From: a virus
Lineage: Duplodnaviria; Heunggongvirae; Uroviricota; Caudoviricetes
DNA length: 50,800 nucleotides
IMG/VR virus record: IMGVR_UViG_2563366874_000012
Strand: one strand, 5' to 3'
Each line of letters opens with the position of its first letter. Within the stretch, counting starts at the first letter, position 1. The notes below the pieces were generated by a model. The model was not told where the DNA came from and did no database searches. It worked only from the letters and a program-made list of their open reading frames with translations. A program made the position numbers and the translations under genes. Shown one piece after another: positions 2,795 to 19,512 of this stretch.

Positions 2795-5387
2795 TTGCAT
2801 ATTCCTTAGCCCAGCGGGGCAGTGATAATGTCTTAATAGCTGGCCATTCATCGGTATTCAGGCAGTCAGACAGGGTTCGCAGATTGCGGTGATATTCCTG
2901 TTGACCTGCCAGTTTTGCTTCTTCGCCCATCATGAAAATTTCAACCGGATAACGTCCGCATTCAATAGTTGTGCTGGCAACCAGAAAAACGAAAGTTGGC
3001 TGCACTCCAAACAGTGCTTCATAACCGTCACTGTAGAATGCATCCTGAACGTGATAGCGGTAGTCGTAATAAGCGGTTTTGAATCGTTGAATATCCGCCG
3101 TAGTTTTCACGTCCATGATCCAGTGAAATTCAGGGATAATTTTGTCCGGACGGCACCGACACAAAATTCCTGTTTCAGGATCTTCCCAGTAAATTGATGA
3201 TTCAGCGTGTCCGGCGCTTTCAACAAGCCATTGCCCCAGCGGCAAAGCCATAACGCTTTGATACATGAGTTCAATTTTCCGGCCTTCTTCCGCAGTGATA
3301 ACCGTTTTTCCTGTGCTTGCGCATTCCATCAGAAACGCTTTCTCTTCTTCTTTTCCGGCGTTTGTACGGCGGTTAAATTCAGGTGCTACGATAAAGCGGT
3401 TACTGAATTCTTCCGGTTCAAGTACCCGGCAGTGGAAAGCAGTTCCTAAATCGAGCGTTTTTGTCTTTGTGGTGTCCACGGGGGCATTTTTACGCCACAA
3501 ATATAGTGCCGGAGTATCAGCAATGTCATCGAGCTGAGACTTACTGATACCGGGACCCGCGTGGTAATTCTCATTCGAAATTCCGTAATAAATACCTGGC
3601 TCTATGTCTTCTACGATTACGGGATCTGCGACTTCGCCAGTTTCATCACTGCAATCGTGATGCGGATCGCTGCCAGCATTCTCATTGTGCGGATGTTCAG
3701 CGCCTTCCATTTCCTCCGGATCATTTTCCTTAGCTTCAACCTGACTCTCTTCATCGAATGTTTCCTGGTATGTTGCGTCGCCCATCACCGCACCACAGTC
3801 AGGGCAGTTATCCCCGCCAGTCTGGCCGCAGGCATTGCAGGCTATTTCCGGTTCCTGTTGCACTACTGGCTCAGGTTGATTCATATCTGGGCTGGTTTTT
3901 TCCGTTTCTGGCTGGTTCTGGTACACACAATCGCGAGTCTGGATCCCCTTTACCCATTTCGGATCGTTCGGGTCGCTAATTCCGTCAACAAATTCACCAC
4001 GTGATGCAGCAAGCAATTTATCGGCATCGACAGGATTTTTTGATGGAATGTTTTTCCGGGCTTCATGGAGTTCTGCCCGCAGTTCCTGATATTTCGCATC
4101 AACAGAATTTACCTGTGACTGAGCATCCAGCGGCTGCGTGTCCTGATGATGTTCAGTTGCGTCCGGTTCCATTGTTTCAGCCTCTCCCTGTTCAACTGCC
4201 GTTGTTCCAGATGGTTGCGGTTTTTCTTCATCATCCTGTTTTCCTTCTTCTGTTACTCGCTGCGGCATCGGGGCAGAGGAGCGACTGCAGGCAATATCCA
4301 CGATTTCCGGATCAGGGTTGGCATGATCGGTTTCAGTCAGTACTTTGTTCAGATATTCAGTGACGTGCGCGGGGATGACCTCGATCCCAATTGGTGCTTC
4401 TTTTACGGACGCAACCACGATGGCGCGGGAATAATCCAGCCCGCCAGGCATGGTGATGAATTTGTCGCGGAAAACAGAAAAGGGCGGTTTATTTTCAGCG
4501 ATAATTTCCTCAATGCGTTTAGCGTGTGCCGGATGAAGGTTATAGATGTCCAGATCCATTGAACGGGCCAGTACGCCAGTGGCTACGTCGCGCGCCAGTG
4601 ACGTCAGATCGTGTACGAAACCTTCGCCGCGATCGGTGAGGTTTCCGCCGCCAGCATTAGCACCGGAAGCCGTGCGAGTGATGTGTGAAACACGATTACC
4701 CTTCATCCACTCTTTTGTCAGCAGTCCTCGATCGGTGTAGTCAGCGTTCAGGTATGCTTCGAAAAAAGCAGTTATCAGTCCCAGGTTTGAATTACCAGGA
4801 TTAGGGAAAACTTTGTCAGTGTCACGAACCAGTTTGTGGAGTTCGCGAATTTCCAGCGGGTCGAGCAGGCTGGTTTTGTGGGAAACAGCCAGGGCAGTAA
4901 CAGCCGGTAGTTCTTCAGCCCGAGCAATGTGTAATGCCTGGAGTCCGTCGCGTGAAACGTGCGTTACCGGTTTTTCGCTGCCGTGTTGAGCAAGCCAACG
5001 AATGGGCAGTTCCTGGCCAGAAATTGGGAGTAGCATATTCTCCTCAATCTCAGTCATGTCTTCGCCGTTGACGTTGGTATTGCCTTGATAATGAGCGTTG
5101 TCTGGTGCTGCTCCCGGTTTTAGTTCCCATGTCATGGAGTCTTTGCTGAGTTGATAGCGTTCACTCCAGGTAAAATCGATCTCACCTTCAGCGGGCAGGT
5201 CATTAACGACAGGAAAATTCGTGGCAACAGCTTTAAAATAGCTGCTCAGTTTTTTACCTGACTTAACGATCAGGTAGTCCAGAGTGGCACAGGTCGATTC
5301 AAAATCGTTGCTTGCCCACAGGACGACGTCAGGTTCACCGGATGATTTTTTCGCTTTCCGTAACAGGAAGAGTGGTTTTGTGCTCAT
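2787..5387 (-). CDS. recE: RecE exodeoxyribonuclease VIII
   Basis: 866-aa ORF, same length as Rac RecE; acidic central region and C-terminal nuclease domain; recE-recT operon arrangement. Confidence 0.9.
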
Positions 5388-12511: not shown

Positions 12512-12524
12512 TAATACTAAATAA

Positions 12525-16154: not shown

Positions 16155-16693
16155 TTTACCCAACGAATACAGGAAAAAGCGGAGAACACCTTCGTCTCGC
16201 CACGCTGGAAAGTGTCTGGATTCAGGGCAAACTGCGTATGTGGGGGCGCTGGTCGTATATTGGCGGTGGCAGGTCAGGAAATATGTTCAATCAGTTGTTG
16301 GCATCCAAAAAATTGACGAAAACAGCCATCAATGAAGCCCTGCGCAGAATGAAAAAAGCGGGAATAGAGAAAGCTGAGCTGGAAGCGTTTTTGCGAGAGA
16401 TGATCAACGGCAAGCAAAAGAGCTGGCTGGCGCATTGTACTGATGCAGAGGCGTTATGTATTGATCGAGTCATAAGTGAGGTGCTGGCAGAGCATCCTGG
16501 ATTGATTAGTGTCCTCCGGCAACGGTATGAAGGACGGGGGATGACTAAGCGCAAAATGGCTGAATTGCTAAATGATGCACATCCTGAGTGGTGTTTTAGC
16601 ACATGCGAAAAGCGAATTGCTAATTGGTTGGCTGTTGCTGAGTATGCCCTATATATTCCCATGCGAGAATCATTTGCTCAAAAAATAGCTTGA
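16151..16693 (+). CDS. Late-gene antiterminator Q-like protein
   Basis: 180-aa ORF from GTG overlapping the upstream stop (GTGA); Cys/His-containing; followed by promoter-like element and short-transcript terminator (PR'/tR' architecture); call is largely positional. Confidence 0.55.
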   Translation: MIYPTNTGKSGEHLRLATLESVWIQGKLRMWGRWSYIGGGRSGNMFNQLLASKKLTKTAINEALRRMKKAGIEKAELEAFLREMINGKQKSWLAHCTDAEALCIDRVISEVLAEHPGLISVLRQRYEGRGMTKRKMAELLNDAHPEWCFSTCEKRIANWLAVAEYALYIPMRESFAQKIA

Positions 16694-16718
16694 TTTTTTA
16701 CGCATAAACTGCTTCAAT
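16690..16718 (+). promoter_or_regulatory. Candidate late promoter PR' (with qut region)
   Basis: TTGATT (16690-16695), 17-nt spacer, TTCAAT (16713-16718), about 60 nt upstream of the tR'-like terminator. Confidence 0.4.
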
Positions 16719-16778
16719 TCCGGTATGCTTCGCAAAGCTGTATCGCGAGGCGAACCAAGCGCATGAACTTTACCAGAA

Positions 16779-16805
16779 CCCGCCATTGAGCGGGTTTTGT
16801 TGTTT
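16779..16805 (+). terminator. Intrinsic terminator (tR'-like)
   Basis: CCCGC-cattga-GCGGG hairpin followed by TTTTGTTGTTT. Confidence 0.55.
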
Positions 16806-16914
16806 CTGGTACTGGTGAACCTGATGTTTCATTTCTGGAGCGCGATTCCTGGCGGAATACCTAGAATCGAGACATTCTGGTAAAATTGTTTTCAGTACAG
16901 GATGTGGAGGTGAG

Positions 16915-17484
16915 ATGAGAGAACTACCTAAAGATTATTTTTTAGGAGTAGATGATGAGCTCGTCGATTATCTTGAAAAACAAGGGGAAGAGACGATACG
17001 AGAGATTCATCTTTCTAACAAAACCAATGTTGAGAATGGATACAAACTTCTGAACATTCAGATTGTTGGAATTGGTTCATCTTTTTTATTGCTGACACAG
17101 AAAACTAATTTCGATTTTCTCACCGCCGGAATTACCTCATTTACATTACTATGGACATGGTGCGCCATTTACTTGGTATGTACTGGTTTATCTGTGAAGG
17201 TTAGGGGCCTGATCAATGCCCCTCCTGATCATATATATCATGAAAAATATAAGGATATGGAGCCCTCGAGCTTTAAAATATTCGCTGATGCAGGATATTT
17301 AGGACCTGATAAGTTATTGCCGCTTATACGAAGGTATCGCCTTGTTGACTTGAGTGATACAGCAAGAGAGTTACTGTTGGAAAATGAGAAAATCCGCACG
17401 AGTCTCGATAAAGCAAGGATGTATACCATCCTTGCTCCGGTAGCGGCGATGTTTATCTCGGCTGTTTTTTTATATGTTCAATGA
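16915..17484 (+). CDS. Uncharacterised membrane protein (moron between Q and lysis genes)
   Basis: 189-aa ORF, GGAGGTGAG SD; hydrophobic segments LLNIQIVGIGSSFLLL, FLTAGITSFTLLWTWCAIYLVCTGL and C-terminal MYTILAPVAAMFISAVFLYVQ; visibly AT-rich. Confidence 0.5.
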   Translation: MRELPKDYFLGVDDELVDYLEKQGEETIREIHLSNKTNVENGYKLLNIQIVGIGSSFLLLTQKTNFDFLTAGITSFTLLWTWCAIYLVCTGLSVKVRGLINAPPDHIYHEKYKDMEPSSFKIFADAGYLGPDKLLPLIRRYRLVDLSDTARELLLENEKIRTSLDKARMYTILAPVAAMFISAVFLYVQ

Positions 17485-17614
17485 CTGAGTCGGCAGAATC
17501 TCCAACAAAAACACGACGTGTAGCAAAGTCTGTAGTACTTTGTGTTGGAGTTGGTTTTGGTGCCACGGGTTGCTGAGGTTTATTTTCACCTTGTGGTTTG
17601 TTTTTTTCAGACAT
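17453..17614 (-). CDS. Possible 53-aa hydrophilic small protein convergent with the moron gene
   Basis: MSEKNKPQGENKPQQPVAPKPTPTQSTTDFATRRVFVGDSADSVIEHIKKQPR; AAGAGG SD 8 nt upstream; 3' end overlaps the moron 3' end by 32 nt. Confidence 0.3.
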   Translation of the reverse strand: MSEKNKPQGENKPQQPVAPKPTPTQSTTDFATRRVFVGDSADSVIEHIKKQPR

Positions 17615-17708
17615 AAAAATCCTCTTTGTTTGAATTGTTACTTTTGGCGATTTAACGATATCAAACACGAGTATATACCGCCAGAAGCTTAATCTGGCAC
17701 TCCATCTG

Positions 17709-17733
17709 GCCCCGGCATGTCCCGGGGCTTTTT
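17709..17733 (+). terminator. Intrinsic terminator upstream of the holin gene
   Basis: GCCCCGG-catgtc-CCGGGGC hairpin followed by TTTTT. Confidence 0.55.
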
Positions 17734-18054
17734 CGTTGTTAGGCTCTGGAAACATCCTCGACTTCTTGTTAGCAAGCCTGAGAGCCTGAATCTTACACTT
17801 AGCACCATCCGAACTCTCGGAGGTGAGGCTTATGAAAATGCACAATGCCCCTCATTCCTGGCCTGACTTACTGGAACTCTTACAAAGTTGGTGGCGTGGA
17901 GATACGCCGCTGGGTGCAGTGGTTATGTCAATTATTATGGCTGGTTTGCGCATTGCCTATTTTGGCGGTGGCGGCGGCTGGAAACGAAAAACGCTTGAGA
18001 TTCTGCTTTGTGGTGCTCTGACGCTGACCTTTGCATCCGCGCTTGGATTTGCCC

Positions 18055-18960
18055 CTATATTTCCAGACATCTGTTATCACTTAACCCATTACAAGCCCGC
18101 TGCCGCAGATATTCCCGTGGCGAGCGATAACCCAGCGCACTATGCGGATGCCATTCGTTATAATGCTCGAACGCCTCTGCAAGGTTCTTTGCTGCCGTTA
18201 ACCCGTCTGGTTTGGGCATGATACTGATGTAGTCACGCTTTATCGTTTTCACGAAGCTCTCTGCTATTCCGTTACTCTCCGGACTCCGCACCGCCGTGTT
18301 CTTCGGTTCAAGTCCCAACATCCGGGCGAACTGGCGTGTTTCATTAGCCCGGTAGCATGAACCATTATCCGTCAGCCACTCCACTGGAGACGACGGAAGA
18401 TCGTTGCCGAAGCGGCGTTCCACCGCTCCCAGCATGACGTCCTGTACTGTTTCACTGTTGAAGCCGCCGGTAGTGACCGCCCAGTGCAGTGCCTCACGAT
18501 CACAGCAGTCCAGCGCGAACGTGACACGCAGTCTCTCTCCGTTATCACAGCAGAACTCGAACCCGTCAGAGCACCATCGCTGATTGCTTTCTTTCACGGC
18601 CACTCTGCCTGTATGTGCCCGTTTCGATGGCGGTACAGCAGGTTTTCGCTCAAGCAACAGCGCATTCTGGCGCATGATCCGGTAAACACGTTTGGCATTG
18701 ATCGCAGGCATACCATCAAGTTCTGCCTGTCTGCGAAGCAGCGCCCATACCCGACGATAACCATACGTTGGCAGCTCTCCGATAACATGGTGTATACGGA
18801 GAAGCACATCCGTATCATCAGTGTGACGACTGCGGCGGCCATCCATCCAGTCATCGGTTCGTCTGAGAATGACGTGCAACTGCGCACGCGACACCCGGAG
18901 ACAACGGCTGACTAAGCTTACTCCCCATCCCCGGGCAATAAGGGCGCGTGCGCTATCCAC
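18055..18960 (-). CDS. insD: IS2 transposase OrfB (InsD)
   Basis: 301-aa [49 protein letters not shown]... with DDE integrase-type core. Confidence 0.9.
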
Positions 18961-19283
18961 TTTTTTGCCCGTCCATATTCAACGGCTTCTTTGAGGAGTT
19001 CATTTTCCATCGTTTTCTTGCCGAGCAGGCGCTGGAGTTCTTTAATCTGCTTCATGGCGGCAGCAAGTTCAGAGGCAGGAACAACCTGTTCTCCGGCGGC
19101 GACAGCAGTAAGACTTCCTTCCTGGTATTGCTTACGCCAGAGAAATAACTGGCTGGCTGCTACACCATGTTGCCGGGCAACGAGGGAGACCGTCATCCCC
19201 GGTTCAAAGCTCTGCTGAACAATTGCGATCTTTTCCTGTGTGGTACGCCGTCTGCGTTTCTCCGGCCCTAAGACATCAATCAT
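18918..19283 (-). CDS. insC: IS2 OrfA (InsC) HTH protein
   Basis: 121-aa [59 protein letters not shown]... Confidence 0.9.
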
Positions 19284-19512
19284 CTGTTCTCCAATGACTA
19301 GTCTAAAAACTAGTATTAAGACTATCACTTATTTAAGTGATATTGGTTGTCTGGAGATTCAGGGGGCCAGTCTAGCGCTTGAGTATGTCGGATGGCCTAA
19401 ATCACTTTCTGTTGCCATTGGTGGTGGGGTGGGGCTGATTGGTGTTGATGCTATTCGTGGTGCGGCAATGAGGGTCATCGGTAACAAGTTCGGTGCCCAT
19501 AAGGAGTAATTA

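Follow-up and report, generated by a model that had tools for sequence, protein, structure and literature searches.

The question raised by the 50,800-nucleotide (nt) stretch of DNA in IMG/VR virus record IMGVR_UViG_2563366874_000012 (Caudoviricetes), a Rac-like lambdoid prophage of Escherichia coli that is below called the window, always at its full length, is whether a 53-codon open reading frame (ORF) on its minus strand, which runs into the 3' end of a plus-strand gene for a 189-amino-acid (aa) membrane protein, is a gene at all and, if it is, what it does to the gene that it faces. As firmly as comparative data allow, the small ORF is a genuine protein-coding gene under purifying selection, and its strict co-occurrence, in both directions, with the membrane-protein gene across Enterobacterales supports the view that it is a functional partner of that gene. 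With a modest balance of probability in favour of this reading, the small gene would be the antisense member of a late-operon module, made opposite in time to its partner and antagonising it.

The small ORF as a protein-coding gene

The product of the ORF, MSEKNKPQGENKPQQPVAPKPTPTQSTTDFATRRVFVGDSADSVIEHIKKQPR (53 codons), is a basic and very hydrophilic protein (isoelectric point 9.7; grand average of hydropathy -1.24) in which proline, glutamine and threonine account for 17 of the 53 residues. A preliminary description of the locus had reported such a hydrophilic ORF with a ribosome-binding site (RBS) and a short overlap with the membrane-protein gene, all of which the sequence confirms:

17453..17614, minus strand: gene of the small protein, 53 aa, ATG start, TAA stop at 17453-17455 (ORF listing)
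17621..17626, minus strand: Shine-Dalgarno (SD) box AAGAGG, 6 nt 5' of the small-gene ATG (sequence and homologous loci)
16915..17484, plus strand: partner gene, encoding a 189-aa helical membrane protein with three transmembrane (TM) segments (phrog_11870), in late-operon orientation (ORF listing, PHROGs, AlphaFold2 (AF2) model)
17453..17484, both strands: convergent coding overlap of 32 nt between the small gene and the 189-aa gene (ORF coordinates)

Within 4 kb around the locus there are 60 ORFs of at least 25 aa, which places a size of 53 aa at chance level; an antisense ORF of such size is unremarkable, and the case for a gene therefore rests on comparative evidence. Relatives of the partner were gathered from E. 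coli genomes and phage records, from one genome per species and from a large protein collection. In every lineage with an intact partner (partner identity 42-100%; at least 15 sequence lineages) a convergent ORF of 46-58 aa is present, namely in a second E. coli type, the 'Actinobacillus' phage pPE4, Trabulsiella, two Serratia species, Yersinia, Pantoea, Proteus, Morganella, Salmonella bongori, Citrobacter, Klebsiella and a metagenomic contig. Each of these ORFs starts with ATG, preceded at 5-9 nt by a GGAG, GAGG or AAGG box, and overlaps the partner by 20, 32 or 42 nt. The indels in the protein alignment are all in-frame, and the family shares the pattern M-S-x-x-N-K-P...K-P-Q...K-P-x-P...F-x-x-x-R-x-x-V-G-D-S-A...K-K-x-K, in which V-G-D-S is almost invariant. 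A profile search retrieved 70 clusters of 46-53 aa, all unnamed and from the same genera as the partner.

The substitutions point in the same direction. Outside the overlap, the ratio of non-synonymous to synonymous change (dN/dS; Nei-Gojobori, NG86) of the small gene is 0.07-0.30, close to that of the partner gene; between the window and Leclercia (L009), for example, the small gene differs at 9 of 29 synonymous and at 4 of 97 non-synonymous sites. Variability peaks at the third codon position (0.44 versus 0.28 and 0.22). Conservation of the frame in all intact-partner lineages, together with this dN/dS range, answers in favour of a gene the check that the preliminary description had suggested. 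The alternative that the ORF is a chance open frame antisense to a conserved 3' untranslated or regulatory region can appeal to the commonness of short antisense ORFs and to the lack of a Pfam or NCBIfam family, but with a dN/dS of around 0.1, the most variable position being the third, a frame that survives several indels, and a start codon and SD box in all lineages, it is scarcely credible and effectively refuted.

Annotation of the small gene is inconsistent, as it is called in some genomes with a probably wrong start and is absent from others. The earlier expectation that default annotation would miss it holds for several records, where it is uncalled (BCE049 as annotated by the NCBI Prokaryotic Genome Annotation Pipeline (PGAP), phage ON470616, and the gene calls on L015/L016, L019, L021 and L022), but does not hold in general: in the near-identical locus of E. 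coli TUM14771 (L001, 6754-6969) PGAP calls the same frame hypothetical protein WP_152948782.1, and PHROGs places the small protein in phrog_14506 as it does the 189-aa partner in phrog_11870, both families being without assigned function. The PGAP start is the upstream GTG at 17666-17668 (minus strand), which gives a product of 71 aa. This start was rejected on two grounds: a stop codon shuts the extended frame in L002, and the GTG is situated 5' of the conserved -10-like motif considered below; the ATG at 17614 is favoured because a stop codon directly precedes the ATG in this divergent locus of BCE049. The 71-aa entry and other long versions, which in other sources measure 66-100 aa (P0226, P0234, P0243), probably carry a false N-terminal extension. 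Scans of both proteins against Pfam, NCBIfam and PADLOC gave no match, and a literature search by accession and PHROG number yielded no papers.

A run of seven A residues at 17599-17605 lies in codons 3-5 of the small ORF. In locus L023 (around position 3190) one A of this run is lost and the small frame is broken, with the partner there frameshifted as well; the loss may reflect decay, an error of sequencing or a site prone to slippage.

Pairing with the membrane-protein gene and mobility of the pair

The AF2 model of the partner is all-helical (predicted local distance difference test, pLDDT, 83.7), with helices at residues 14-62, 68-92 and 134-188 and hydrophobic segments at about 45-61, 73-94 and 169-189. 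The N-terminal helix is invariant and strongly acidic (D-Y-F-L-D-x-D-D-x-L-V-D-F-L-E-K-Q-G-E-E). Fold comparison gave matches to generic long-helix bundles only, and sub-threshold matches of distant family members to PycTM, DUF1218 and 8xMP were set aside as hydrophobic-segment noise. The partner family comprises about 100 clusters across Enterobacterales.

Among the loci collected, every intact partner is accompanied by the small gene. When, conversely, two abundant clusters of the small protein served as the starting point, 8/8 places listed showed the 189-aa gene in convergent orientation and overlapping by 20 nt, and neither gene was met alone in intact form. This co-occurrence upholds the proposal that the ORF is a partner of the membrane-protein gene. 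Wherever the context is informative, the partner gene runs in the direction of the late genes and the small gene against them. The finding that had been named beforehand as speaking against the gene, a disrupted small frame where the 189-aa gene is conserved, occurs in no locus examined; the reverse state, an inactivated partner next to an intact small ORF, is present in three lineages (a frameshift in E. coli/E. marmotae, a widespread nonsense allele in Klebsiella pneumoniae, and Leclercia), and both genes are broken in two lineages. A 31-aa ORF on the plus strand (17481-17576), whose ATG overlaps the partner stop, was dismissed as it is not kept in L002.

The gene order in the window is DUF1367, DUF1364, the DUF1133 Q-type antiterminator (ending at 16693), a terminator, the 189-aa gene, the small gene, a second terminator and a lambda-family holin gene that starts at 17832. 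The core of this order, with the Q antiterminator, the 189-aa gene and the holin/lysis genes on the plus strand and only the small gene on the minus strand, is found in the window and about 20 related loci. The pair lies beside antiterminators of four Pfam families (PF06576/DUF1133, PF06530, PF03589 and PF06323) and adjoins holins of several families, while two loci (L026, L011) place it among tail genes, again with the small gene opposed to co-oriented neighbours; given these differing contexts, the pair moves as a unit between phage backbones. The flanks of the insert (16700-16808 and from about 17700) are common to many prophages that lack it. The pair thus has the properties of a moron, a discrete terminator-flanked insert that is missing from similar phages and present in different backbones, and on gene order it is a mobile two-gene module in the Q-dependent late operon, usually located between the antiterminator and holin genes.

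With linkage over 0.8 kb being strong, the two genes might also be unrelated neighbouring morons that are co-inherited by proximity alone. The two genes have however stayed together across partner identities of 32-100%, in phages of unrelated backbone and at two types of genomic location; a hairpin embedded in the partner codons and the 3' overlap are kept throughout, and neither gene was found alone intact, all of which makes mere linkage very improbable. The lower end of this identity range is represented by a distant Gilliamella locus, where a 32% identical partner is placed after the tape-measure gene and is accompanied by a shorter look-alike of the small protein, MNKQKEQQPSPKPVPRFVGNEQEKKK, which can be regarded tentatively as a family member.

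Downstream of the pair, the holin gene of the window is interrupted by a copy of the insertion sequence IS2 (insC/insD ORFs on the minus strand) at 18046-19374 and resumes at 19375 with a short duplicated junction; the lysis cassette of this prophage is therefore disrupted, and both genes of the pair remain intact. The otherwise 99.9% identical prophage of E. coli TUM14771 (L001) carries IS5 at 769-1749, corresponding to around position 12520 of the window, which has no IS5, and is itself without IS2; the two elements are independent insertions in one prophage lineage. Another locus, L003 (PP818812, 'Actinobacillus phage vB_Apl-pPE4', 1504-2944), encodes nin-region proteins 86-99% identical to those of the window (DUF1367 96%, DUF1364 99%, Q 86%). 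Such identity would not be expected if the phage infected Pasteurellaceae, and either its host assignment or its assembly may be in error.

Transcription signals and RNA structure

Both strands of the locus carry candidate signals for transcription:

17655..17663, minus strand: extended -10-like motif TGATATCGT (TGnTATnGT), with a predicted transcription start near 17648 (motif conservation)
17628..17665, no strand assigned: conserved block over the promoter-like motif and 5' leader, with the imperfect inverted repeat TTTGA-N3-GTTA ... TAAC-N4-TCAAA (conservation)
17410..17438, minus strand: 13-bp stem-loop, 14 nt past the small-gene stop, in partner codons 166-175 (covariation, folding)
16774..16799, plus strand: tR'-like intrinsic terminator 5' of the cassette, following the DUF1133 gene (terminator scan)
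16879..16886, plus strand: GGTAAAAT, -10-like, about 30 nt upstream of the partner ATG; a weak candidate for a partner promoter
17680..17698, plus strand: hairpin GCCAGA...TCTGGC between the small-gene promoter-like motif and the downstream terminator (compensatory changes)
17708..17734, plus strand: intrinsic terminator downstream of the cassette (terminator scan)

On the 5' side of the small gene, the motif TGnTATnGT recurs in 13/15 loci, its distance from the ATG being 37-41 nt except in one locus with 48 nt; it points to a putative promoter belonging to the small gene. The surrounding block is better conserved than the adjacent coding sequence, and L006 and L007 show covariation between the arms of its repeat; the block may be bound as an operator or form an RNA hairpin on the plus strand. 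The two most divergent cassettes (L018, 1231-1300; L011, 4575-4650) have no TGnTATnGT block and carry upstream two copies of the direct repeat TTTCTCAYGTAC, that is TTTCTCA(T/C)GTAC, about 30 nt apart, which suggests a second regulatory subtype.

At the other end, the stem-loop behind the small-gene stop was assessed in a gapless alignment of 13 loci with 500 shuffles and slid controls. Its stem pairs in 94.1% of cells on the minus strand versus 78.1% on the plus strand, where about 30 G.U cells of the minus strand turn into A.C mismatches. Five stem pairs show compensatory changes; none of the 500 shuffles reaches the observed values, and the slid controls lie at 46-57%. When the sequences are folded one by one, the minus strand consistently gives the more stable structure (in L007, -27.2 versus -19.1 kcal/mol). 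Three of the covarying pairs join third codon positions of the partner (codons 166/174, 167/173 and 168/172; A10 columns 14-38, 17-35 and 20-32), synonymous sites at which selection on the partner protein cannot account for them; an RNA structure appears in this way to be kept by covariation within the partner reading frame. For a fourth pair, which couples Ala/Val167 with Ala/Thr174, helix packing is an alternative cause. That the codon for Arg168 is always AGR was dropped as an argument for the hairpin, AGR being common throughout these genes. The stem-loop likely marks the 3' end of the small mRNA, as what may be a weak terminator or a protective hairpin.

A minus-strand hairpin of this kind, the convergent 3' overlap and the highly conserved non-coding 5' block would also suit a transcript that acts chiefly as antisense RNA on the partner mRNA, in the manner of lambda OOP on cII or of type I antitoxin RNAs that overlap at the 3' end, the peptide being secondary as in a dual-function RNA. 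Against this, purifying selection on the amino acids, the in-frame indels and the kept SD box argue that the protein itself matters, the overlap lies at the 3' end of the partner, distant from its RBS, and there is no Rfam match; the antisense-RNA explanation is decidedly unlikely. The Rfam search covered 16600-17900 at E values up to 5 and returned nothing meaningful.

On the plus strand, a terminator 5' of the partner gene is present in nearly all loci, and an equivalent of the downstream terminator, with many compensatory changes, lies 90-130 nt beyond the small-gene ATG in most; the GCCAGA/TCTGGC hairpin, again with compensatory changes, is found in most loci of the Q-to-lysis type. As plus-strand terminators are located only outside the pair, the partner/late transcript would run antisense across the small mRNA over its full length. 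The predicted transcripts would share more than the 20-42 nt by which the coding sequences overlap. The capacity for antisense regulation that had been surmised from the 3' overlap is predicted by the layout, with its own promoter-like motif for the small gene, a 3' hairpin within the partner coding sequence and terminators that flank the pair.

Read as plus-strand RNA, the conserved block, the hairpin at 17680-17698 and the terminator have a seed/stem-loop/terminator layout reminiscent of a small regulatory RNA, with no match in Rfam. In two Citrobacter loci (L021/L022, around 3790-3870) the downstream terminator is replaced by a tRNA-like gene (CAT anticodon region, GGCCCTTTAGCTCAGTGGTTAGAGCG) immediately behind the cassette.

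The antagonist model and comparable modules

A type of prophage module whose antisense gene is expressed at the opposite stage of the phage life cycle from the gene beside it has been recognised only recently. In the Tha/Ith system of phage 80alpha (Staphylococcus aureus), the inhibitor is encoded by a small antisense gene that has a promoter to itself and adjoins the gene of the inhibited protein, and the antisense effect arises mainly via polymerase collision (Rostol et al. 2024, PMC11087260). In the Tai/Ati system of phi80, the antisense gene is situated in the Q-dependent late operon adjacent to its binding antagonist, and expression of Q lowers the antisense product (PMC11364771). The authors of both studies predict many more such modules (PMC11087260, PMC11364771), for which the present cassette, widespread in Enterobacterales, compact and delimited in its anatomy and with no characterised homologue, is a candidate.

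With Tha/Ith the pair shares a small gene that is antisense in a phage operon next to its partner and that is preceded by a promoter, shown there and represented by a promoter-like motif here; there is no sequence relationship between the two. While Tha is a cytoplasmic HEPN RNase encoded in the cI (lysogeny) operon, the partner here is a three-TM membrane protein of the Q-dependent late operon, and with this late placement the predicted timing is inverted, the small gene being on in lysogeny. The 3' coding overlap and the small-gene hairpin inside the partner coding sequence further set the pair apart from Tha/Ith. Tai/Ati is alike in its setting, with the late operon of a lambdoid phage, one member opposed to the operon, a gene overlap of 20 nt in phi80 and a moron-like mobility. 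In phi80, however, the antisense gene is large (204 aa) and the late-strand gene small (76 aa), sizes that are swapped here, and the genes are divergent, overlap at their 5' ends and follow the lysis genes, whereas the present pair is convergent, overlaps at the 3' ends and lies between Q and the holin gene. Homology to Tai/Ati was rejected, as BLASTP against TaiEcA/AtiEcA gave no alignment better than E=10, the family profiles (A5, A8) gave negative bits, and tblastn of both window proteins against the phage collection did not match phi80.

Under the favoured reading of an antisense antagonist made at the opposite time, late transcription in the lysogen would halt at the upstream terminator and the small gene would be active from its own promoter. 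Once the prophage is induced, Q-modified polymerase would read through, transcribe the partner gene and meet the small gene head-on, which would be silenced by polymerase collision and/or duplex RNA, so that the two products would be made at opposite times in the style of a noncontiguous operon. Such an operon, a concept akin to the excludon and ascribed to Saenz-Lahoya et al. in 2019, is reportedly one that is interrupted by an opposed gene, to which its transcript is antisense, with reciprocal expression of the two; the class is said to be defined by transcript structure, and the pair can be called a noncontiguous-operon-like module with regard to gene order, promoter-like motifs and terminator positions.

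An interaction of the two proteins is suggested because the pairing is obligate and because Tha/Ith and Tai/Ati provide an analogy, and by the same analogy an antagonist pair fits the function best. Least secure are the final steps, in which the basic, largely disordered small protein, a plausible ligand for the acidic N-terminal helix, might bind the cytoplasmic acidic helical part of the partner and antagonise it, and in which it might, by analogy with Ith and Tha, act in the lysogen like a safety catch or antidote, preventing a late-acting membrane protein from doing harm. It is a tentative and on balance doubtful proposition that the pair represents a previously unrecognised prophage antagonist system, in which an antisense-encoded disordered protein of about 50 aa controls a three-TM protein through a switch hard-wired by the 3' overlap, with the hairpin in the partner codons. 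Such a system, sequence-unrelated to those described, might act as a toxin with its antidote, as a safety catch on a late gene or in defence and counter-defence, roles that are put forward just as tentatively.

Several observations weigh against the antagonist model. The -10-like GGTAAAAT is kept in the window, L002, L003, L005-L008 and L021 and missing from L012, L015 and L018-L020, in which the terminator directly adjoins the RBS; given its presence in many loci, the partner could be made in lysogens too, which would weaken the assumption of opposite times. A generic sigma-70 scan detected no minus-strand promoter, so that the proposed promoter of the small gene stands on the motif. A good U-tract 3' of the stem is found in some loci only and is absent in most, and the stem-loop may therefore not be a terminator. 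The structure model of the small protein is mostly extended, with a single short helix at residues 39-50 (pLDDT 71), beyond which no fold is predicted. Finally, the asymmetry of decay, with the partner broken and the small gene intact, speaks for the model but is suggestive only; few lineages contribute to it, and mutations have a 3.5-fold smaller target in the small gene.

The decay pattern in addition fits equally well the reverse polarity, in which, as with Tai/Ati, the small protein would be a lysogenic effector with, for instance, an anti-phage or host-modulating activity, and the late 189-aa protein the counter-measure of the prophage, which would sequester or neutralise the small protein in the lytic cycle. 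It is the small gene that is opposed to the late operon, like taiEcA in phi80 (PMC11364771), and that stays intact where the partner is inactivated, the widespread K. pneumoniae lineage included; this would be expected if the small protein is of benefit to the host on its own and a defective prophage can do without the counter-measure. A mostly disordered protein of 50 aa would nevertheless be an unusual stand-alone effector, neither homology to Tai/Ati nor a PADLOC match was found, and many loci have a possible promoter of the partner's own. The reverse polarity is accordingly considered unlikely, though a serious competitor of the antagonist model.

Convergent prophage units with complementary 3' ends, one partner of which is membrane-associated, are also known from txpA/RatA and bsrG/SR4 of Bacillus prophages and from lambda OOP versus cII. 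In the type I toxin/antitoxin pairs among them, txpA/RatA and bsrG/SR4, the toxin is a peptide of less than 60 aa and its antisense counterpart an RNA that encodes no protein. Here, in contrast, the antisense transcript encodes a conserved hydrophilic protein, with purifying selection on the ORF and SD box and start codon kept, and the hydrophobic partner has 189 aa and three TM segments in place of the small hydrophobic toxin (below about 60 aa) of type I. The co-directional operon and known toxin or antitoxin domains of type II systems are likewise missing, as the genes are convergent in all loci and, as noted, no Pfam, NCBIfam or PADLOC match was obtained; the asymmetric decay would be compatible, if only weakly, with a growth-inhibiting toxin that its antitoxin neutralises by binding. 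The suggestion of a toxin/antitoxin-like pair in the preliminary description is thus not sustained with respect to either class.

The site of the pair deserves attention in itself. The slot between Q and the holin gene of lambdoid phages is known for Shiga toxin genes, and judging from the present cassette it also houses regulatory two-gene modules. In phi80 (L035, 4071-4386) the stretch from pR' to the holin gene contains two annotated rightward terminators that enclose about 260 nt of empty sequence; this is the slot that the cassette fills in the window, which would fit an insertion site flanked by terminators and used repeatedly.

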